From: a virus
UHGV virus genome: UHGV-0324630
Reading direction: 5' to 3' (one strand)
DNA: 37,666 nucleotides
The notes beneath the pieces were generated by a model. It searched no databases, was not told the DNA's origin, and saw only the letters and a program-made list of their open reading frames with translations. Position 1 is the stretch's first letter, and each line of letters begins with the position of its first letter. The position numbers and the translations under genes were made by a program. Positions 1 to 37,666 of this stretch are shown here, one piece after another.

Positions 1-44
1 TCACGACACTGCTTATTGCTTTGATTTTATTCTTATCTTTCCCA

Positions 45-99
45 TGGTACCCGGAGCGGGACTTGAACCCGCACAGCGCGAACGCCGAGGGATTTTAAA
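45..99 (-). tRNA. Partial tRNA-Leu (UAA-type) 3' fragment, about 55 nt; probable prophage att core, not an intact tRNA gene
   Basis: Minus-strand reading gives ...TTTAAAATCCCTCGGCGTTCGCGCTGTGCGGGTTCAAGTCCCGCTCCGGGTACCA: long class-II variable arm, T-arm GGTTCAAGTCC, acceptor 3' strand and CCA. Matches my memory of E. coli leuZ from the anticodon loop to the CCA end. The 5' half (acceptor 5' strand, D-arm) is absent; sequence diverges at position 100. Confidence 0.7.
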
Positions 100-119
100 A
101 ACTATCAACCACCATTTAT

Positions 120-139
120 AAATCATAACCTTATGATTT
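120..139. repeat. Perfect inverted repeat AAATCATAA-cc-TTATGATTT between att core and int 3' end
   Basis: Read directly: 9-bp arms, 2-bp spacer. Could be an int terminator hairpin or an arm-type protein-binding site. Confidence 0.4.
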
Positions 140-205
140 TATTAACTTTGAAAATGGCTCTATACAACGCCATTTGAATCTATTGTCACTTTTTATCGCC
201 ACTTT

Positions 206-1207
206 TTACCCTCTATTGTCAAAAGGGTTCAATTCAACAGCAGCCTCTAAATGACCTGGAGCAAAATGCGCATAACGCATAGTCATTTTTATATCGCTAT
301 GCCCCAGTATTTTTTGCAACACAAGAATATTTCCGCCCCGCATCATAAAATGACTGGCAAACGTGTGACGTAGCACATGAGTTAATTGCCCATCAGGAAG
401 CTCGATCTTCGCTCTCTTAATTGCAGCGTCAAAAGCCTCATAACATGGTGAAAATAGCGCTCCTCGTTTTTTAGGAAGCATAGCTTGCAATTGAGGTGAA
501 ATCGGTACAGTGCGGTTCTTCTTTCCTTTAGTTTTAACAAATGTGATTCGACCGGGCAGTACTTGAGATTGCTTTAATCCTTCTGCTTCACTCCACCGAG
601 CACCAGTCGCAAGCCCAATACGGACAACAACCCCCAAATCTTTATTCCGTGACTCATCACACGCAATCAGAAGGCGTTCAATCTCATCTACATACAGAAA
701 CGCCAGTTCCTTTTCTTCCTCACGAAACTTGCGAATACCAGTCAGGGGGTTTTCACCAGACCACTCCCCAAGGCGCTTCAGTTCGGCAAAAACAGCATGT
801 AGATATGACTGCTCGCGATTAACGGTTGCTTCACTAAGTTTTTTCTTCCCCTTGGGATTCCATTCTCCTGATAGCCTTCTTTCCCGATAAGTAGCAAACA
901 TATTTTTGTCAAACTGAGAAGCAAATGGATCTCCCAGCCTGGAACAAATCGCCTCAAGTTTGACTTTGCGCTCTGCACCAGAGGACAAGGTTTTACCGTA
1001 CATCTCAAACCAACGAGCAATCAACTCAGAAAGACGAGGACCAGAACCATCTTGAAACTCGTCTCCAACTCTACTATTCATTAAACGGCGCTCATAAGAG
1101 AGCGCCTCACTTTTTGTCGCAAACTGTTTACGAATGCGTTTTCCCGATGCCCCGTAGGGATAACATTCGCAAAGCCATTTACCTGATGGAATCTTACGAA
1201 CCGACAT
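206..1207 (-). CDS. int: Tyrosine-type site-specific integrase (P2/P4 phage integrase family)
   Basis: 333-aa ORF; C-terminal catalytic region ...LRHTFASHFMMRGGNILVLQKILGHSDIKMTMRYAHF with the R..H..R..Y pattern typical of phage tyrosine recombinases; lies next to the tRNA-derived att core. Confidence 0.92.
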   Translation of the reverse strand: MSVRKIPSGKWLCECYPYGASGKRIRKQFATKSEALSYERRLMNSRVGDEFQDGSGPRLSELIARWFEMYGKTLSSGAERKVKLEAICSRLGDPFASQFDKNMFATYRERRLSGEWNPKGKKKLSEATVNREQSYLHAVFAELKRLGEWSGENPLTGIRKFREEEKELAFLYVDEIERLLIACDESRNKDLGVVVRIGLATGARWSEAEGLKQSQVLPGRITFVKTKGKKNRTVPISPQLQAMLPKKRGALFSPCYEAFDAAIKRAKIELPDGQLTHVLRHTFASHFMMRGGNILVLQKILGHSDIKMTMRYAHFAPGHLEAAVELNPFDNRG

Positions 1208-1212
1208 TTTAG

Positions 1213-1560
1213 TTACTTATCACATAAATCAAATGCAGCCTTAGTGACATCCCCCAGACTCTTTTTTAACCCTGGGGCGGCATCATTATCTAGCCAAAAT
1301 GGATTATTGTTATCTAACGGTAACGCACCAAATGTTTTACCTTTTATTCGAGCCAAACCTGTAAGTGCATATAACTTATTATCGTCAAAATTCATCACAT
1401 AAGGATTACCATCAAGACACTGTAATTGAACCTCATCAGTATTAAATGGCCATACCCCATTGAAACTCTCACGTTCAATAGTTTTAAAAGGCATTGCGAC
1501 GGCGGAAAAAGAAAACATAGATAAAAAAGTAACTAATAGTTGAACCTTTTTTACTTTCAT
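1213..1560 (-). CDS. Small secreted protein with N-terminal signal peptide, function unknown (cargo gene 5 nt upstream of int)
   Basis: 115-aa ORF; N-terminus MKVKKVQLLVTFLSMFSFSAVAMP is signal-peptide-like; two Cys in the mature part; GAGGT RBS 6 nt upstream; stop is 5 nt from the int start codon. Confidence 0.6.
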   Translation of the reverse strand: MKVKKVQLLVTFLSMFSFSAVAMPFKTIERESFNGVWPFNTDEVQLQCLDGNPYVMNFDDNKLYALTGLARIKGKTFGALPLDNNNPFWLDNDAAPGLKKSLGDVTKAAFDLCDK

Positions 1561-1589
1561 ATCATTACCTCAATTTAGCTCAAGTAAGA

Positions 1590-2240
1590 TTACAAATTAA
1601 AAAACGCCCTAGAAATGACACCGCCTACCAAAACCCCTACGCAGATAAAGAATATTATTTCTTTTGGATAAAGTCGGATTAATTCTGAAGCACGAAGTCG
1701 GACTTCTGGTAAGGTCGAACTCTCTGTGTGGCTTGATGCCGATTGTTGCTCTAACCACGACAATGCAGACTGTAACTGAGAACGAGTAAGATCGTTTAAA
1801 CGTCCTGTACCGAAATTGATATGGCAATACCGCAGAAGTTTTTGTCGAAGTCCACAGTCTTCACTGTTACGTAGTAATAAACTTACAAGAGCCTTACAGG
1901 CATCATGATCTTTACATCGCTCAAGCATTGCATGCAGAAAACTCTCCGCTGTTTTATATTGATTTACTGTCATATCATCAATACCAGCTACACCAATCTC
2001 CGCATGTACTTTTTGCCAAATAATAAACGCTTCAGTATTGCTAGCTTCTGCAATAGCAGCAACCAAGCTATTTAGCTCCTTACGCTGAGCCTTAAGCAAA
2101 GGGCGATCGTCATCATCATTATTCGAAGGGATTGCGATATTGACGGTATGAGAACCATCATATCGCTCTATCTGAATATTCTTTTCGTGAAAATCACGCC
2201 CAGCAACGCGATTGTTTGAACCGTTTGAGTTGACGGCCAT
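1590..2240 (-). CDS. Hypothetical protein with C-terminal transmembrane anchor; N-terminus shares an NNR[IV]AGRD[YF] motif with the upstream HTH protein
   Basis: 216-aa ORF; GGAGGTGA RBS; C-terminal hydrophobic stretch IIFFICVGVLVGGVISRAFF; N-terminal NSNGSNNRVAGRDFHE resembles the C-terminal ISGGNNRIAGRDYNE of the ORF at 2256..2660. Confidence 0.6.
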   Translation of the reverse strand: MAVNSNGSNNRVAGRDFHEKNIQIERYDGSHTVNIAIPSNNDDDDRPLLKAQRKELNSLVAAIAEASNTEAFIIWQKVHAEIGVAGIDDMTVNQYKTAESFLHAMLERCKDHDACKALVSLLLRNSEDCGLRQKLLRYCHINFGTGRLNDLTRSQLQSALSWLEQQSASSHTESSTLPEVRLRASELIRLYPKEIIFFICVGVLVGGVISRAFFNL

Positions 2241-2660: not shown

Positions 2661-2669
2661 ACAAAAACC

Positions 2670-2698
2670 TTGACAGGTATCTTTTTTGATACCAAAAT
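2670..2698 (+). promoter_or_regulatory. Candidate rightward early promoter (TTGACA, 17-bp spacer, CAAAAT) with embedded operator-like inverted repeat GGTATC-tttttt-GATACC (2676..2693)
   Basis: Perfect -35 hexamer TTGACA at 2670-2675; weak -10 at 2693-2698; perfect 6-bp inverted repeat occupies the spacer; sits in the 75-bp repressor/RHH intergenic region. Confidence 0.35.
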
Positions 2699-2735
2699 GA
2701 TTTCACGAGCTATTAGATGATCACAATATACCACT

Positions 2736-2958: not shown

Positions 2959-3162
2959 ATGTCAGGTATAACCATCAATATCAATGTGAATGCCCCCTAT
3001 GTATCCCTGCAGAAATATGCAGAGATAACAGGTATCCCTCTTAATACATGCAAAAAGATGTTGGCTGACGGTCGAATTATTATCCGCCCCAAACGCGCCA
3101 AAATGGAAAAGCCTGAAGTAAACCTTGTGGCGATGTTAAAAGACGCTTTGGCTAACAGCTAA
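2959..3162 (+). CDS. Cox/excisionase-like small HTH DNA-binding protein
   Basis: 67-aa ORF with strong AGGAGG RBS; YVSLQKYAEITGIPLNTCKKMLADGRI resembles the P2 Cox / AlpA-Xis HTH region (from memory). Confidence 0.65.
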   Translation: MSGITININVNAPYVSLQKYAEITGIPLNTCKKMLADGRIIIRPKRAKMEKPEVNLVAMLKDALANS

Positions 3163-6480: not shown

Positions 6481-9303
6481 ATGACGGCAGAGTACATCAG
6501 GGACTGGCAACAACCGCGCCACGCAGTGGGGCGTGAAGGAACGGGGATCCCCGCTCCTGAATCTGCGCTTTCCTCCTGGCTGGATGCCTACCGGGCAGAG
6601 AACGAGCGCCGCCAGGAAATGGCTGATGCGGCGTTCTCCGCCACACCGCTGGGCAACCTGATTAATAAAAGCCTGGACGCACAGGAAAAACAGGACAAAG
6701 CCATCACACTGGCAGGAGACGCCAGAAAACAGGCACGCGGCGCGGTGGATGAAGCCATGGCCTCGCTGCGCCTGCTGCCGTCCTATTTGCGCGATCCACT
6801 TATTCGTCACCTCTCCTTCCTGCGCAAAAAACAGGAAGCCGATCGCCGGAAAGGCAAAAAGAGCTGGCAGGCAGAACGCTATGCACGCGGAACCCTGCGC
6901 AAGATATTCGATCGCATAAACCGCACCGACAGCCGCTGGCTGACACCGGGTTATCGCTCCCTTGCCGGACGCGAACGCCTGGACGATTTGCTTTACCTGC
7001 CGCAGCTCAACAAGCACCAGATACAGACGCTGGCTACCATGACGGCGGCGATGTTCAGCAGCACCTTCGAAAAACTCTGCGATGGTTTTGGCGCGACCGA
7101 TGGCGAGCTGACCATGGATGTAACCCTGAAGGCGTATCAGATGCTGGCCCGCATGGCGTTACACCTGCACGCCATGCCTCCACATTATGACGCACTGACA
7201 ACAGACAAAGACCGGAGGAACGAACCGGACACGGAGCTGCTGCCAGGCGCAATCCTTCGCCTGACCTGTGCGGAATGGTGGAAACGCAAACTGTGGCTGT
7301 TACGTTGTGAGTGGCGGGAAGAACAACTTCGCGCCGCCTGTCTGGTTTCCAGAAAAACATCGCCCTATCTGAGCCAGGACGCGTTAAGCGAGTTTCGCGC
7401 ACAGCGCGAGAAAACACGCGATTTCCTGAAAAGTTTCATGCTGGAAAACGAAGACGGGTTCACGATTGATCTCGAGACAGTGTATTACGCGGGAGTAAGT
7501 AACCCGGTTCACCGTAAGGCAGAAATGATGGCCACCATGAAGGGGCTGGAACTTCTGGCCGAAGCCCGTGGCGACAAAGCGGTGTTTCTGACTGTCACCT
7601 GCCCGTCAAAATACCACGCCACAACAGAGAACGGTCATCCGAATCCCAAATGGAACGGGGCCACCATGCGCGACTCCAGCGATTACCTGGTTAACACGTT
7701 TTTTGCGGCGGTCCGCAAGAAACTGAACCGCGACGGCCTGCGCTGGTATGGCATCCGCACGGTGGAGCCTCACCATGACGGCACCGTGCACTGGCATATG
7801 ATGGTCTTTGCTCATCCGGAAGAAATCGACACCATTGTGTCCCACACCCGTGATATTGCCATTCAGGAAGATCGTCACGAGCTGGGTGATGATATTACCC
7901 CACGCTTTAAGGCGGAGTACGTCGACGGCTCAAAAGGCACACCGACCAGCTACATCGCCACCTACATCGGGAAAAACCTGGACAGCCGTGCCGTGGATGG
8001 CATCGACCCGAAAACGGGCAAGCCACGCGTTGACCACGAAACCGGAAAATCAATGGCCGAGAGCGTGGAACGCGCCATCGGCTGGGCGCGCCTTCACCGG
8101 GTCCGCCAGTTCCAGTTTTTTGGTATCCCCTCCCGTCAGGTGTGGCGTGAGCTGCGTCGCCTTGCCAGCCAGATGGCACGCAACCCGGAAGGCCCACAAC
8201 GGCTGAAGGATGACGCAATGGATGCGGTTCTTGCTGCCGCTGATGCCGGATGTTTTGCCACCTACATAGAGAAACAGGGCGGCGTACTTGTTCCACGCAA
8301 GGACTACCTGGTTCGCACCGCCTACGACCTCGCAGATGAACTGAATGATTACGGCGAACAGAGCGTACAGATTTACGGGATCTGGTCACCACTCATCGGG
8401 GAATCCTCTCGTGTGTGCACGCATCCGGATAACTGGAAGCTGGTAAGACGTAAACCGGAAACGGAAGACAGCGCCCGCGAAAATGGTTTTGACCTTCAGG
8501 GCGGCCCTGCCGCCCCTTGGACTCGTGGCAATAACTGTCCCCGTGTACAGGAAACGGACAACAACGGGACAGAACAGCCGGAAGAACGGCCAGCACCGTG
8601 GCCGCAGCTCCCTGACGGCGTTGAAGTGAACGAATGGATGCGCTCACTGAAACGGCACGAACGCCGGGCGCTGATGCGTTCGCTTCGTGACAAACAGGCA
8701 AAAAACAGCAGTGATGAAATGCAGAGCTGGACACAGAGCCGCAAACAGCAGCGGCCTTTGCCTGATAACCACGAATTACTCGCTAAAGAATGGCGGGAGT
8801 CTGCTGAATCTCTCGGCCTGCATATCGGTGAACAACAGATGCAGCACCTGTTACGGGGCGGCAGTCTGTACGTTGACGGCAGCATCATTGCACCGCAGGG
8901 ATTTGAAATTATACGCAAACCGGATACCCGCCCGGACAGCCGAATCACGCAGCTCTGGCAGCGCCTGAGCCGTAATCACGGCGTAAGCAGCACGGAGATC
9001 CGCCATAACCCGGTCGCCAGCTATCTGGCACAGCTGGGGGCATCAGCCCCTGAAGCCGCCGCACGCCTGGCATCCACACTTCAGCAGGACCAGAACACCA
9101 TGAAAACACCCGTTACCGTGCTTTCTGACATGCTGCGCGCCATCCGCGACGCAGAGCACGCACAGAGAATCAGTGAAACCACTGAACGCGCCCGCCGCAA
9201 AGCAGACCTGCTGCGGGGTGGCCTGACCAGTGGAAACAATAAACAGACAGAAACGGGACTCACGAATCCCGTAAATGAGCAAAAAACGCGCAGCGATATA
9301 TGA
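6481..9303 (+). CDS. A: Rolling-circle replication initiation endonuclease (P2 gpA family), with a long C-terminal extension
   Basis: 940-aa ORF; HUH-type motif GTVHWHMMVFAHP and paired-tyrosine motif TSYIATYIGKN typical of P2 A-type Rep proteins. Longer than P2 gpA (about 760 aa by my memory). Confidence 0.9.
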   Translation: MTAEYIRDWQQPRHAVGREGTGIPAPESALSSWLDAYRAENERRQEMADAAFSATPLGNLINKSLDAQEKQDKAITLAGDARKQARGAVDEAMASLRLLPSYLRDPLIRHLSFLRKKQEADRRKGKKSWQAERYARGTLRKIFDRINRTDSRWLTPGYRSLAGRERLDDLLYLPQLNKHQIQTLATMTAAMFSSTFEKLCDGFGATDGELTMDVTLKAYQMLARMALHLHAMPPHYDALTTDKDRRNEPDTELLPGAILRLTCAEWWKRKLWLLRCEWREEQLRAACLVSRKTSPYLSQDALSEFRAQREKTRDFLKSFMLENEDGFTIDLETVYYAGVSNPVHRKAEMMATMKGLELLAEARGDKAVFLTVTCPSKYHATTENGHPNPKWNGATMRDSSDYLVNTFFAAVRKKLNRDGLRWYGIRTVEPHHDGTVHWHMMVFAHPEEIDTIVSHTRDIAIQEDRHELGDDITPRFKAEYVDGSKGTPTSYIATYIGKNLDSRAVDGIDPKTGKPRVDHETGKSMAESVERAIGWARLHRVRQFQFFGIPSRQVWRELRRLASQMARNPEGPQRLKDDAMDAVLAAADAGCFATYIEKQGGVLVPRKDYLVRTAYDLADELNDYGEQSVQIYGIWSPLIGESSRVCTHPDNWKLVRRKPETEDSARENGFDLQGGPAAPWTRGNNCPRVQETDNNGTEQPEERPAPWPQLPDGVEVNEWMRSLKRHERRALMRSLRDKQAKNSSDEMQSWTQSRKQQRPLPDNHELLAKEWRESAESLGLHIGEQQMQHLLRGGSLYVDGSIIAPQGFEIIRKPDTRPDSRITQLWQRLSRNHGVSSTEIRHNPVASYLAQLGASAPEAAARLASTLQQDQNTMKTPVTVLSDMLRAIRDAEHAQRISETTERARRKADLLRGGLTSGNNKQTETGLTNPVNEQKTRSDI

Positions 9304-9379: not shown

Positions 9380-10339
9380 ATGAAAATTTGTATCGACGAC
9401 GGCTCCACCAACATCAAGCTGGCATGGACTGAGAACGGCGAACGCCGCAACGCCATCAGCCCGAACAGCTTCAAGTCGGAATGGTCTGCGCCGTTCGGTG
9501 GCACGCAGCCCGCGAACTACATGCTTGATGGCGTGCGCTATGGTTTTGATCCTGTCAGCGATCGCTTTGTCCAGACGACCGACACGCAATACCAATACAG
9601 CGATGTGAATGTCATTGCCATTCATCACGCGCTGGTCAAATCAGGCATCACGCCACAGGAGGTGGATGTGGTTGTCACCCTGCCACTGAGCGAGTATTTC
9701 GACACAAACGCACAGCCGGACATGGCCAACATCAACCGCAAAAAAGCGAACGTTATGCGCCCGGTGGAGTACCAGAACGGCAAAGCATTCACTATCCGTA
9801 ACGTACGGGTTATGCCTGAATCTATTCCGGCTGGCTTTAAAGCACTGGCTGACATGAGTCCGTTTGAATCCCTGCTGATTGTGGATTTAGGCGGAACCAC
9901 GCTGGATGTGGCAAAGGTTCAGGGACAACTGGCAGGTATCAGCCAGGTGTTTTGCGATCCACACGTAGGCGTTTCCCTGATGGCCGATGCAGTACTGTCG
10001 GTGATGGCCACTAACGGTATGCGTACCAGTCACCACATCGCCAATACCATTATCGAACATCGCCATGATGAAGCTTGGCTGCGCCAGCACATCCACAATG
10101 ACGCGCATTACGCCAGCCTGATGGCGGTTATTCGTGAAAAGGAAGAAACACTGAAACAACGCGTGATCCGCGCGCTGGCGGGTTTTTCGGGTTACGGGCG
10201 GGTGATGGTTGTCGGTGGCGGAGCGGAGATTGTGGCACCCGCTATCCGCGAAGCCTGCGGGGTTAATGCGACTTTCATCGCGGACGGGGTGCCACAGTTT
10301 GCTCTGGTTAATGGGCTGTACGCAATGGACAAGGAGTAA
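9380..10339 (+). CDS. parM: ParM/StbA-family actin-like ATPase (type II partition NTPase)
   Basis: 319-aa ORF; N-terminus MKICIDDGSTNIKLAW...ISPNSFKSEW...YQYSDVNVIAIHHAL and later PESIPAGF, IVDLGGTTLD, FSGY..VMVVGGGAE align closely with my memory of plasmid R1 ParM (MLVFIDDGSTNIKLQW...ISPNSFKREW...). Confidence 0.9.
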   Translation: MKICIDDGSTNIKLAWTENGERRNAISPNSFKSEWSAPFGGTQPANYMLDGVRYGFDPVSDRFVQTTDTQYQYSDVNVIAIHHALVKSGITPQEVDVVVTLPLSEYFDTNAQPDMANINRKKANVMRPVEYQNGKAFTIRNVRVMPESIPAGFKALADMSPFESLLIVDLGGTTLDVAKVQGQLAGISQVFCDPHVGVSLMADAVLSVMATNGMRTSHHIANTIIEHRHDEAWLRQHIHNDAHYASLMAVIREKEETLKQRVIRALAGFSGYGRVMVVGGGAEIVAPAIREACGVNATFIADGVPQFALVNGLYAMDKE

Positions 10340-10343
10340 ACCA

Positions 10344-10655
10344 ATGACGACACCAACCAGACGGATAAGTTTCTATCTGAAGCCCGCCGCCGTCAAGAAC
10401 GAAGGCGAAGCATGCGCCTGGCTGGACAGCCTTACACCAGAAGCCCGTAAAAACGGCCAACGCGTGGCTTTTCTGGCCGGGCTGGCGCTTCTGAAAATGA
10501 ATCCGGCAGAGGCTTACCGACTGGCAGCATGGGCTGACGATGAGGCGTTATCAGTGACACAAACCAGGACAGAACGCCCCCTGTCACAGCCAGTACCAAC
10601 CGCACAGATAACCAGTCAGATGGCCGGAAATATCAGGGCGTTATTTCCTGAATAA
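10344..10655 (+). CDS. parR: ParR-like centromere-binding adaptor (RHH family)
   Basis: 103-aa ORF from ATG 10344 (AAGGAG RBS); RISFYLKPAAVKNEGEACAWLDSLTPEARKNGQRVAFLAGLALLKMNP and C-terminal IRALFPE resemble R1 ParR (IAFKLNPDV...DSIPQGERSRLNRAALTAGLALYRQDP, LRSLFPKE) from memory. The longer track ORF from 10209 overlaps parM and is probably not the true start. Confidence 0.8.
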   Translation: MTTPTRRISFYLKPAAVKNEGEACAWLDSLTPEARKNGQRVAFLAGLALLKMNPAEAYRLAAWADDEALSVTQTRTERPLSQPVPTAQITSQMAGNIRALFPE

Positions 10656-34680: not shown

Positions 34681-35820
34681 GTGGGAAACAATAAAGTGAA
34701 ATTAGGAAGAAATGATAAGTGCTGGTGTAATTCAGGACTTAAGTATAAAAAGTGCCATCTTGGTCGAGACCGTGAAACTCCGGTATCCAAAGCCGAGGCA
34801 CTGAAATTTTCAAAGTCTCTCTCGCAGAGAAAGGCATGTTATGCGCCAGCATCCATGCACGAAGATTGTGATAAACGCATCGTTCAGGCGCATACGATAT
34901 CTAAGAGCAGTAGCCTTAAGGCGATCGCCGACTCCAGCAATCACGTCATGGGGGTGATAATGAACTTAGCAAGCCTGATGAGAAACAACGGAAAATGGCT
35001 TCCCGAGAAGATCGGTATCAATCAGGCATCCACTTTTACAGGATTTTGTGCAGTTCATGACAGAATCTTGTTTTCATGCCTAGAGAACGAAAAATTTACA
35101 GGCACGGACGAGCAGTGCTTTGCCTTAATGTTTCGTTCATTGTCTAAAGAAATTTACGCCAAAGAAGGGGGAGTGCTATCTTCCGATTTTGCTAAAAATG
35201 CCGATAAAGGAAAGCTACAAGTTGAACAGTATTATATTCAGAAATTAATCGACCAGCACCAAAGTGGCTTAAATGCAGCAATAATTGAATTAAATAATCT
35301 TAAAACTAGCCTCGACCGCATCCTACTTAGCAGGCAATTTTCAGAAATTGAAAGTGTTATCTTCACTTTTGCAGAGCCTTTACCAATTGTAGTTTCGTCA
35401 ATTCTTTCACCGGAGAGGGATTTCGATGGGACCAAAATTCAGGATTTGAGCGATCTTACAGTGTCGGCGGAACAAGTATGTTTCAATGCTTTTTCCTGCG
35501 GAGGTAAGGGATATGTAGTGTTCAGTTGGCTGAGAACTTCAACAATTATCAGACGTTTTATACGGACACTAATTAAGATCCCGGCTAACAGGATGTTCAA
35601 TACCCTTCTGTATTTTTTCTTCACAAAGGCCGAAAATACATATTCATCCCCTGAGTGGTGGGACAGGCTCAGTGATAAACAGCGAGAGAATATCGGCAAC
35701 ATGATTATGTCAGGGGTTGAATTTTTTGGCAGACCTACATCACAGGTTGATCATTCCGTTGATTATAACGCCGCTGCACTTGAAGAGATAACATGCAGCA
35801 ACAACGAAATTTGCAGCTGA
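34681..35820 (+). CDS. Uncharacterised protein with N-terminal SEC-C-like zinc-binding motif (C-W-C-x8-C-H); AT-rich cargo gene inserted between gpD and ogr
   Basis: 379-aa ORF (GTG start, start uncertain; alternative GTG at 34696); N-terminal KCWCNSGLKYKKCH; rest unrecognised; strongly AT-rich with about 400 bp and about 290 bp non-coding flanks. Confidence 0.65.
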   Translation: MGNNKVKLGRNDKCWCNSGLKYKKCHLGRDRETPVSKAEALKFSKSLSQRKACYAPASMHEDCDKRIVQAHTISKSSSLKAIADSSNHVMGVIMNLASLMRNNGKWLPEKIGINQASTFTGFCAVHDRILFSCLENEKFTGTDEQCFALMFRSLSKEIYAKEGGVLSSDFAKNADKGKLQVEQYYIQKLIDQHQSGLNAAIIELNNLKTSLDRILLSRQFSEIESVIFTFAEPLPIVVSSILSPERDFDGTKIQDLSDLTVSAEQVCFNAFSCGGKGYVVFSWLRTSTIIRRFIRTLIKIPANRMFNTLLYFFFTKAENTYSSPEWWDRLSDKQRENIGNMIMSGVEFFGRPTSQVDHSVDYNAAALEEITCSNNEICS

Positions 35821-36561: not shown

Positions 36562-36702
36562 ATGTCGCAAAAATCGCTTACGGCCATCACGTTCTGCGTG
36601 ACGGTAATCCTCATCATCTGGATGCTACACGGTTCGCTGTGTGAAATACGGATGAGCTTCTGGGGAGCGGAGTTTGCGGCGTTCTTACAGTGTAAGCAGT
36701 AA
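36562..36702 (+). CDS. Hok/Gef-family type I toxin (small membrane toxin)
   Basis: 46-aa ORF with AAAGGAG RBS: MSQKSLTAITFCVTVILIIWMLHGSLCEIRMSFWGAEFAAFLQCKQ; N-terminal TM helix then the SLCEIR motif characteristic of Hok/SrnB/PndA; not in the ORF track (below 60 aa). Confidence 0.8.
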   Translation: MSQKSLTAITFCVTVILIIWMLHGSLCEIRMSFWGAEFAAFLQCKQ

Positions 36703-37558: not shown

Positions 37559-37644
37559 AGTTTAAACAGCACGTGCACTACCATTGTTTCTGCATATCGC
37601 CACACCATCGCCACTCTACCGCCATTGCACAAAATACAAATACG

Positions 37645-37666
37645 AAAAAACCACCCGAAGGTGGTT
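37645..37666. terminator. Hairpin AACCACC-cgaa-GGTGGTT preceded by A6 at the window edge; terminator-like (U-tract on the minus strand; plus-strand tail cut off by the window)
   Basis: Read directly; window ends inside the 3' arm. Confidence 0.35.

Follow-up and report, generated by a model that had tools for sequence, protein, structure and literature searches.

The stretch of DNA that we analysed, 37,666 nucleotides long and hereafter called the window, starts on its minus strand with the 3' part of a host tRNA gene and the spacer that belongs to it; a palindrome, a cluster of short repeats and a tyrosine integrase gene follow, and further parts of the same site lie at the window's right end. 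By coordinates and strand, the features are:

1..44, minus strand: the 3'ETS-leuZ part of a 121-bp block shared with the host; identical to K-12 3'ETS-leuZ (annotated as ncRNA b4759) and present in strain 631 at attL as well as attR
45..99, minus strand: the last 55 nt of leuZ tRNA-Leu(UAA)
93..99, minus strand: anticodon loop TTTAAAA, where identity begins on the left and strands are probably exchanged
100..110, minus strand: phage-specific sequence adjoining the core, reverse complement GGTTGATAGTT; putative core-type Int half-site on the phage side
120..139, no strand: perfect 9+9 palindrome AAATCATAA-CC-TTATGATTT, between the core and the arm sites
181..206, minus strand: two tandem 13-bp units, putative near-arm Int sites; reverse complements AAAAGTGGCGATA (194..206) and AAAAGTGACAATA (181..193)
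195..202, minus strand: strongest near-arm 8-mer, ATCGCCAC on the plus strand, reverse complement GTGGCGAT; has comparative support
182..189 and 215..222, minus strand: near-arm variant copies of RTGGCGRY, each differing at two positions
212..222, minus strand: third, weaker copy, reverse complement TTGACAATAGA, within the final int codons (FDNR); repeats 179..188 exactly over 10 nt
206..1207, minus strand: tyrosine integrase of 333 aa with Pfam Int_N and Phage_integrase domains, transcribed towards the att site
2959..3162, plus strand: Cox-like excisionase/repressor (phrog_575, 'Cox-like excisionase and repressor', E=1.2e-27)
37596..37625, minus strand: three far-arm copies in 11-nt phase, putative Int sites; ATCGCCAC, ATCGCCAC and ACCGCCAT on the plus strand, reverse complement ATGGCGGT-aga-GTGGCGAT-ggt-GTGGCGAT
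37645..37666, minus strand: phage-borne copy of the 3'ETS-leuZ terminator hairpin and T-run, the last 22 nt of the 121-bp block

The first-pass annotation had read the minus strand of 45..99 as the 3' part of a tRNA-Leu that runs from the anticodon loop to CCA and then diverges; the match to leuZ of K-12 and strain 631 proved exact and single in the window, starting at the first base of the loop, with tRNA identity ending at position 100. That the tRNA is incomplete here is borne out by ARAGORN, which recognised no tRNA anywhere in the window, and by an Rfam scan of positions 1..400 at E<=10, which returned no tRNA and whose sole match was a 17-nt, T-arm-like one to tmRNA; run on the full attR of strain 631, the two programs again detected no tRNA, and the spacer matched no Rfam family. 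No second copy of the 55-nt core was found across the window with up to three mismatches allowed. The core had, however, been drawn too short at 55 nt: the block of identity between phage and host measures 121 bp, comprising window 1..99 and wrapping into 37645..37666, and holds the 55 nt from the 3' end of leuZ plus 66 nt of 3' external transcribed spacer including the terminator.

The window corresponds to positions 2163433..2201098 of the strain 631 chromosome, with 2 mismatches in 37666 bases. There the glyW-cysT-leuZ tRNA operon lies intact just outside the window, and the 3' end of leuZ, its last gene, is 45 bp beyond window position 37666, which places the complete tRNA at the other prophage end, as had been presumed; in the coordinates of the strain 631 region (L001), leuZ occupies 8303..8389 and the 121-bp repeat stands at 8335..8455 and 46001..46121. 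The second core copy expected to the right of the window is therefore present in strain 631 but not wholly outside, its last 22 nt falling within the window. K-12 provides the empty site: its attB, in the leuZ-yecA region, equals the left side of attL joined to the right side of attR, with the switch within the 121-bp block, and the empty-site allele suggested for comparison does exist. A gene fragment by int, a regenerated tRNA, a flanking repeat and an empty allele are thus all present, and on sequence grounds the locus is a tRNA-gene attachment site of a tyrosine-integrase prophage. It is of an already-known kind, an ordinary P2/HP1-type prophage attachment in leuZ. The RefSeq annotation of the identical region lists P2-like gene content (a P2-family capsid, GPO scaffold, terminase, portal, and tail sheath and tube) and, also in P2 order, a gpA-type replication endonuclease and ogr.

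The length of the window, 37666, is exactly one period of the attL-attR repeat; as a circle it would therefore carry a single complete attP and no second core. This equality of lengths, and the seamless joining of the window's tail and head into the 121-bp block, make it a serious if tentative possibility that the window represents a circular attP form, or a cycle in an assembly graph, rather than a prophage end, with one uninterrupted core in which 37645..37666 is joined to 1..99. The cut point also falls within the repeat rather than at its edges, as an arbitrary linearisation of a cycle would give; on the other hand, the same bases match a contiguous slice of the strain 631 chromosome with those 2 mismatches. 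Sequence alone cannot tell the circular from the prophage form, and the anatomy and mechanism are equal under both.

The integrase is 58% identical to that of HP1 over its full length (E=2e-139), and its best match in the PDB is 1AIH, the catalytic domain of HP1 integrase (E=4.6e-75). HP1, a Haemophilus influenzae phage of the Peduoviridae (NC_001697), likewise transcribes int towards an adjacent attP; its annotated attP, by the int 3' end, has a core, TTTAAAATCCCTCG, that is identical to the window's and starts at the anticodon loop of tRNA-Leu(UAA). Both phages carry a long copy of host tRNA-operon sequence, but the host and operon differ, the HP1 block running into a whole tRNA-Lys(UUU) and the window's into the 3'ETS-leuZ spacer and terminator. 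For HP1, Hauser & Scocca and Hakimi & Scocca reportedly located strand exchange in the anticodon stem-loop and footprinted the sites of Int and IHF.

In the window, the identities bound the presumed crossover to the first base of the anticodon loop or to the right of it, and we can only infer its exact position. Relatives from Enterobacter, Kosakonia, Buttiauxella and Edwardsiella keep TAGTT or TTAGTT directly 5' of TTTAAAA amid otherwise variable sequence, and 100..110 is a probable core-type Int half-site on the phage side. In a relative from Xenorhabdus (L009), which uses tRNA-Phe, identity begins only at AAAATCCCC; this hints that exchange may take place in the 3' half of the loop or in the stem and not across the whole loop.

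The inverted repeat at 120..139 is perfect over 9+9 bases, as the first-pass annotation had it. Its arms ATCATA and TATGAT are kept in seven of eight relatives and in E. coli variants, with variation in the four central bases (AGGT, AACT, TGAT, TTCT, ACTT); because the arms are conserved across genera and the centre is not, it is probably a site for IHF or an accessory protein, and the earlier suggestion of IHF binding in this region is accordingly a plausible one for the palindrome. The IHF consensus WATCARNNNNTTR fits 120..139 with one mismatch on each strand, in AT-rich DNA, and its ATCA and TTA positions are kept in relatives. The protein that binds the palindrome is, we infer, probably one that bends DNA or has an accessory role, IHF being the leading candidate. 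IHF sites are not typically perfect palindromes. Dimeric HTH proteins typically bind sites of perfect dyad symmetry like this one, in which 6-bp arms are conserved around 4 central base pairs that are free to vary; this, and the one position at which the IHF consensus is missed, speak for an operator bound by a dimeric regulator of the phage or the host, or else for a secondary Int site, readings that we nevertheless think rather unlikely. The palindrome sits between the core and the arm sites, where the bending sites of the lambda and P2/186 attPs lie, and the pattern ATCATA-N4-TATGAT has no further occurrence in the window, the immunity region included. IHF sites are also part of the 186 attP (PMC7498355). 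In HP1 attP, unlike the window, the pattern is not evident. As a terminator the palindrome was rejected, its RNA hairpin being AT-rich and without a T-run, and an ATGATTT heptamer that it has in common with the switch region was considered no more than chance would give.

Two pairs of direct repeats, TCTATTGTCA (179..188 and 212..221) and CACTTTTTA (187..195 and 200..208), had been proposed as arm-type sites near the int 3' end. Both are present at these coordinates, but the register differs: they are fragments of one tandem 13-nt unit, TATTGTCACTTTT / TATCGCCACTTTT, at 181..206, and the arm-site unit is AAAAGTGRCRATA (reverse complement), or RTGGCGRY. The proposed sites coincide with probable Int sites; the 8-mer at 195..202 had not been called, and the three far-arm copies had been missed. 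The function of the third near-arm copy is doubtful because it overlaps codons for the conserved C terminus of Int (FDN) and is changed in strain EC21Z-048, where it reads TTGATAAT; for 212..221, the reading in an E. coli variant is TCTATTATCA.

Region 100..260 was simulated 20000 times under a first-order Markov model: 3.8% of the simulations contained a 10-nt direct repeat, 0.8% contained two families of 9 nt or more, and 0.7% contained a 9+9 inverted repeat whose spacer did not exceed 6; by themselves the repeats are therefore only moderately unusual, and it is the comparative evidence that carries the argument. Whole-window counts of TATYGYCA and AYYGYCAY exceed those in shuffles everywhere, probably through coding sequence, and local clustering and comparison were used instead. 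The 3.8% figure is one reason to ask whether the TCTATTGTCA and CACTTTTTA pairs are non-functional, arising by chance or as by-products of coding in AT-rich DNA; the 212..221 copy encodes the conserved FDNR and is degenerate in EC21Z-048, and relatives outside E. coli are without a second site of the GTGACAAT type. We regard this as unlikely, as both repeats keep the register of a tandem 13-nt unit, the other half of which is the well-supported GTGGCGAT site, many relatives have an A-run just before the motif, and the two families of at least 9 nt occur together in just 0.8% of simulations.

Most of the IMG/VR relatives end at the int stop, and few gave att sequence. Sites of the GTGGCGAT type adjoin the int stop in many relatives; outside E. 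coli a single near-arm site is conserved, and in more distant relatives the int stop has a tandem pair of copies at an interval of 11 nt. On the far arm, E. coli variants keep the motifs while the spacers change, the motif is not found in K-12 attB, and the same arrangement recurs roughly 20 nt beyond the terminator in relatives L004, L011, L068, L071 and L122. Relative to the core, NTGGCGRY stands at -103 and at +140, +151 and +162 in the window, at -101 and at +150 and +161 in L122, and at -112 and -101 and at +192, +203 and +258 in HP1; HP1 thus resembles the window in having repeats on both arms, one of them about 101-103 bp from the core, and differs in its far-arm sites, which span +192..+258 as against +140..+162.

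About 55 residues of Int lie N-terminal of Pfam Int_N; no Pfam arm-binding domain was matched, and the signature in this segment co-varies with the repeat motif. Integrases with CECYPxGAxG pair with GGCGA-type repeats, and those with CQCFPYGRDG with GGCAGC-type repeats. Over residues 60-325, L004, of the GGCAGC class, is closest to L011 (88%) and L006 (86%), of the GGCGA class, so that the association between motif and N terminus does not just reflect one clade. The RTGGCGRY repeats on both arms are, we conclude, probable arm-type sites of Int, the pairing of protein and site being itself putative.

The phage also encodes a Cox-like protein (2959..3162), a probable recombination directionality factor (RDF), and operators of P2-like RDFs are direct repeats one helical turn apart, with five Apl operators at the 186 attP and six cox-boxes at the P2 attP (PMC7498355, PMC3936717). 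It is nonetheless highly improbable that the 11-bp-phased repeats, especially those at 37596..37625, are operators of this protein rather than Int arm sites: an identical 8-mer is found on both arms, and the motif co-varies with the Int N terminus and is common to HP1 and to integrases of 45-58% identity. P2-like RDF operators, moreover, recur between the early promoters, whereas the switch region (2661..2735) is without the motif; a search of this immunity/switch region for the arm motif or for any 10-11-bp phased repeat gave nothing convincing, nor did an operator array of the cox-box or Apl type turn up here.

We therefore favour, with a probability of roughly 0.85, the reading that 1..221 and 37596..37666 form the attachment site of a 37.7-kb temperate phage of the P2/HP1 family that inserts in leuZ. 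The phage would integrate into leuZ bringing a 121-bp copy of host sequence, and Int would act where this block begins on the left, exchanging strands in the 7-nt anticodon loop or right beside it. In the integrated state, the 5' half of leuZ from the host would be followed by a 3' half, spacer and terminator from the phage, forming attL just past the right end of the window, and the original host 3' half would be left beside int as a dead fragment, attR, at window 1..99. Int would be heterobivalent, its N-terminal ~55 residues binding the RTGGCGRY sites: on the int-proximal arm a strong one at 195..202 with variants at 182..189 and 215..222, and on the distal arm the three 11-bp-phased copies. 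The palindrome would be bound by a bending or accessory protein, most plausibly IHF, and the Cox-like protein would direct excision. Directly observed in this explanation are the sequence identities, the ends of the prophage, the existence of an empty site and of an intact tRNA at the opposite end, the homology and layout shared with HP1, and the conservation and co-variation of the motif.

The phage copies the functional 3'ETS-leuZ RNA and its terminator in addition to the tRNA end, so lysogeny preserves and duplicates a known small-RNA regulator: 3'ETS-leuZ is an RNA that pairs with RyhB. Since the 121-bp block holds the whole of 3'ETS-leuZ, a lysogen has a second copy of it. Immediately downstream of int, and on its strand, comes the displaced attR copy; a simple terminator scan at attR recognised no terminator between int and the tRNA fragment, so int transcription could run on through this copy, which would then form the 3' end of the message; the same scan missed the known leuZ terminator, however, and is therefore weak evidence on read-through from int. 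It is a speculative idea, and one to which we give little credence, that the attR copy is transcribed in this way and released, and that lysogeny thereby raises the dose of 3'ETS-leuZ and shifts the threshold of the RyhB (iron) response and also that of RybB (envelope stress). The int mRNA would then end at the same leuZ terminator whether the phage is free or integrated, in contrast to the sib arrangement of lambda.

The analysis fixes the true boundaries of a prophage that is common in E. coli, with the window as the whole att-to-att unit: at least 80% of window 1..1300 is found in 526 of 5426 complete E. coli genomes (~10%), O157 and O121 STEC among them, the O157:H7 and O121 genomes carrying it at 99.8% identity. 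The clean pairing, in natural variation, of Int N-terminal signature (CECYPxGAxG versus CQCFPYGRDG) and arm motif (GGCGA versus GGCAGC) could guide re-targeting or specificity swaps among HP1/P2-type integrases.

Other elements occupy this site or resemble it. The P2-like prophage Sp13 of E. coli O157:H7 Sakai is shortened and defective, in contrast to the full-length 37.7-kb genome of the window. Sp13 and other STEC prophages or integrative elements have been placed at leuZ, and the parts of these reports available to us name the site without its att anatomy (PMC8190617, PMC8767318, PMC7067040). Coliphages 186 and P2 share with the window the phage family and the module order att - int - repressor - cox/apl, and their attPs combine Int core and arm sites with IHF sites and RDF operators (PMC7498355, PMC3936717). 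Their target sites and motifs differ, however, and the window's Int is only ~39% identical to P2-type integrases, as against ~52-56% to those of the PSP3/SopEPhi type. The attP of lambda (P1, P2 / P'1-P'3, H sites) resembles the layout proposed for the window in its heterobivalent Int, in arm sites that stand in tandem on one arm at a spacing of about one helical turn, and in a bending site between core and arm sites, over a span of ~240 bp compared with ~290 bp here; it differs in its unrelated integrase subfamily, its non-tRNA target and its common core of 15 bp rather than 121 bp. The lambdoid phage mEp390, of a different phage family and with a different integrase, has an annotated attP that is 91.8% identical to window 3..99, covering the leuZ 3' part and spacer, and therefore uses the same host site.

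The minus strand at 45..99 (TTTAAAATCCCTCGGCGTTCGCGCTGTGCGGGTTCAAGTCCCGCTCCGGGTACCA) matches exactly the 3′-terminal 55 nt of E. coli leuZ, the gene for tRNA-Leu(UAA), beginning at base 1 of the 7-nt anticodon loop; it is present once in the window, even with three mismatches allowed. Neither ARAGORN over the whole window nor an Rfam scan of 1..400 (E ≤ 10) detected a tRNA, so no intact gene was found overlapping 45..131, and the truncated tRNA-Leu 3′ fragment of the first-pass annotation is confirmed. The whole window matches the chromosome of E. coli strain 631 with two mismatches (NZ_CP040263.1, 2163433..2201098, minus strand), where it is a P2-like prophage between glyW-cysT-leuZ and yecA whose genes include int, a repressor, a gpA-type replication endonuclease, portal, terminase, a P2-family capsid, tail genes and ogr. 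Intact leuZ ends there 45 bp past position 37666, at the other prophage end and outside the window, as predicted. The leuZ-yecA interval of E. coli K-12 is the empty site: it matches attL (the junction with intact leuZ) leftward and attR (the 1..99 side, adjoining int) rightward, with the switch inside a block shared by both. Of 5426 complete E. coli genomes, 526 contain at least 80% of positions 1..1300, a region that the 25 best-matching genomes each carry at ≥99.8% identity. STEC genome papers place Sp13 of O157 Sakai at leuZ, along with shared prophages in O121 and an integrative element in O145 (PMC8190617, PMC8767318, PMC7067040). Unrelated phages (mEp390, Fostie, ZF40, vB_EcoM-569R10 and others; hits H28-H36) also have homology to 1..99, that is, the leuZ 3′ part and spacer, and in one lambdoid phage this stretch is annotated attP; leuZ is therefore a target shared by several integrase types.

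The first-pass interpretation is thus correct in essence, with four corrections: the extent of the shared block, the window as one att period, the register of the arm-type sites and their far-arm copies. In strain 631 the attL and attR copies are identical not over a 55-nt core but over 121 bp, from TTTAAAA via the tRNA 3′ end and for 66 nt more, finishing in the hairpin AACCACCTTCGGGTGGTTTTTT. These 66 nt are annotated in K-12 as the 67-nt ncRNA 3′ETS-leuZ, which has a Rho-independent terminator at its end and pairs with the small RNA RyhB (PMC6191717). In the window, this block and the adjacent arm are divided as follows:

1..44, initial part of the 3′ETS-leuZ spacer
37596..37625, far-arm motif, three copies in 11-nt phase
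37645..37666, 3′ETS-leuZ terminator

A second core copy had been expected to the right of the window; instead, 37645..37666 are the last 22 nt of the block, and the window is exactly one att period. Because it is exactly as long as the attL-attR repeat period and its two ends connect seamlessly into one unbroken block inside the repeat, as they would in a circularised phage genome or a cycle in the assembly, the window may just as well represent the circular attP form or an assembly-graph cycle, with one core and without a second copy. Both arms around a single core also occur in chromosomal or viral contigs of relatives (L071, 3538..3800; L122 and L123, 2508..2900), attP-like junctions that suggest tandem lysogens or circular forms. 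The whole of 3′ETS-leuZ and its terminator lie within the phage-borne, host-identical block, so that each lysogen has two copies, one of them immediately 3′ of int and in its orientation.

Pfam assigns Int_N and Phage_integrase domains to the integrase (Int; 206..1207, minus strand), which shares 58% identity along its entire length with that of Haemophilus phage HP1; its best PDB match is the HP1 catalytic domain (1AIH, E=4.6e-75). The annotated HP1 attP (251..694) directly adjoins the 3′ end of int, as in the window, and comprises in succession, in int sense, two tandem CTGGCGRT motifs, the core TTTAAAATCCCTCG, a whole tRNA-Lys gene and more motif copies (CTGGCGAC-aaa-GTGGCGGT, then ATGGCGAT). 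This core is also that of the window, and begins the 3′ part of a tRNA-Leu.

Motif positions in three attP regions, counted from the first T of the core; the near arm is int-proximal
Window: near arm -103; far arm +140, +151, +162
HP1: near arm -112, -101; far arm +192, +203, +258
L122 (relative, 71% Int identity): near arm -101; far arm +150, +161

Given the Int homology and this common layout, the window element represents the HP1-type recombination module in E. coli, and the object is an ordinary one: an att site of known prophage type and known location, whose HP1 homologue has been well studied.

Both direct-repeat pairs and the perfect 9+9 palindrome (120..139) of the first-pass annotation were found exactly where it placed them; against simulated sequences of the same composition they are uncommon, not extreme (3.8% for a 10-nt direct repeat, 0.8% for two families of repeats ≥9 nt long, 0.7% for a 9+9 inverted repeat). 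The two families turn out to be fragments of one 13-nt unit repeated in tandem, TATTGTCACTTTT / TATCGCCACTTTT (181..206), or AAAAGTGGCGATA AAAAGTGACAATA in int sense. As arm-type sites, the repeats do belong to comparatively supported candidates, but in the register of the 13-nt unit, and the far-arm copies had been missed. The copy at 212..221, though present, is doubtful as a site: it lies within conserved FDN codons, and one other E. coli variant has only a degenerate version.

Among E. coli variants with no more than ~87% identity in the flanking DNA, the motifs persist while the intervening spacers vary. Relatives from other genera (L004, L011, L068, L071, L122) have the same layout ~20 nt beyond the tRNA-operon terminator, and L042, L047, L074 and L050, whose Ints are 45-57% identical, have two tandem motif copies, 11 nt apart, at the stop codon. 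Each of two motif classes is paired with its own signature within Int residues 1 to ~25:

GGCGA-type repeats, Int signature CECYPxGAxG: window, L003, L005, L006, L009, L011, L117, L120
GGCAGC-type repeats, Int signature CQCFPYGRDG: L004, L008, L010, L121-L123

Over residues 60-325, the L004 Int is closest to those of the GGCGA-class L011 (88%) and L006 (86%), against 75-78% within its own class, so a single clade does not account for the association. The pairing is good comparative evidence for recognition of the repeats by the Int N-terminal domain. Excisionase operators in 186 and P2 are likewise direct repeats one helical turn apart (PMC7498355, PMC3936717), but such a role for the phased repeats is disfavoured, since the motif occurs on both arms, is missing around the early promoters, at which P2-like RDF operators recur, and co-varies in class with the Int N-terminus. 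In L004 (3508..3930), L011 (3526..3960) and L068 (Enterobacter soli, Hafnia, Symbiopectobacterium), a related int reaches att from the opposite side, in the order int, three tandem arm repeats, then terminator, spacer and intact leuZ (all reverse-complemented), cysT and glyW.

The palindrome arms ATCATA and TATGAT are kept in Escherichia, Enterobacter, Kosakonia, Buttiauxella and Edwardsiella, around a variable 4-nt centre and in otherwise poorly conserved DNA; ATCATA-N4-TATGAT is unique within the window. Its position between core and arm sites, and its match to WATCARNNNNTTR with one mismatch on either strand, fit a candidate IHF bending site; binding by a dimeric regulator is a possible alternative. 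TAGTT, on the phage side just 5′ of the core, is also conserved among relatives and is likely a phage-side core-type half-site. An imperfect direct duplication of core-proximal phage sequence (91..117, GATTTTAAAAACTATCAACCACCATTT, versus 135..175, GATTTTATTAAC...CTATACAACGCCATTT) may be a core-like site, either vestigial or secondary.

attP and attB become identical at base 1 of the anticodon loop, which in attB is flanked by the anticodon stem GGGA/TCCC. Strand exchange across this loop would be the simplest model, and was reportedly found in HP1. A Xenorhabdus relative (L009, 3517..3700; 68% Int identity) adjoins a tRNA-Phe 3′ fragment, and identity begins there only at AAAATCCCC (junction TTTTAAAATCCCC; the tRNA-Phe loop would be TTGAAAA), so exchange may take place in the loop's 3′ half and the neighbouring stem. 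The tRNA-Phe location implies that the family can use a second tRNA sharing AAAATCCC. Integration would swap the leuZ 3′ half, spacer and terminator for a phage copy identical except for a terminator T-run one T shorter, so that tRNA-Leu(UAA) and the spacer RNA are predicted to remain expressed from attL. The displaced leuZ copy, at attR, comes after int in the same orientation.

Elsewhere in the prophage, a slot beside ogr looks variable and defence-hotspot-like: its occupant is a YecA-family gene in the window (34681..35820), one of the SIR2 family in strain EC21Z-048 and, in strain A17, a different gene classed as hypothetical (compared loci L083, 1..1251, and L084, 1..1419). RefSeq annotation of the identical region places a Hok/Gef-family toxin gene near the right end (36562..36702), and ParM and a plasmid-partition/stability gene (9380..10655) adjoin the replication endonuclease gene of this P2-like prophage. 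Two genes between int and the repressor (1213..2240) look like lysogenic-conversion cargo:

1213..1560, DUF2511 protein with a signal-like N-terminus
1590..2240, 216-aa protein with a hydrophobic C-terminus
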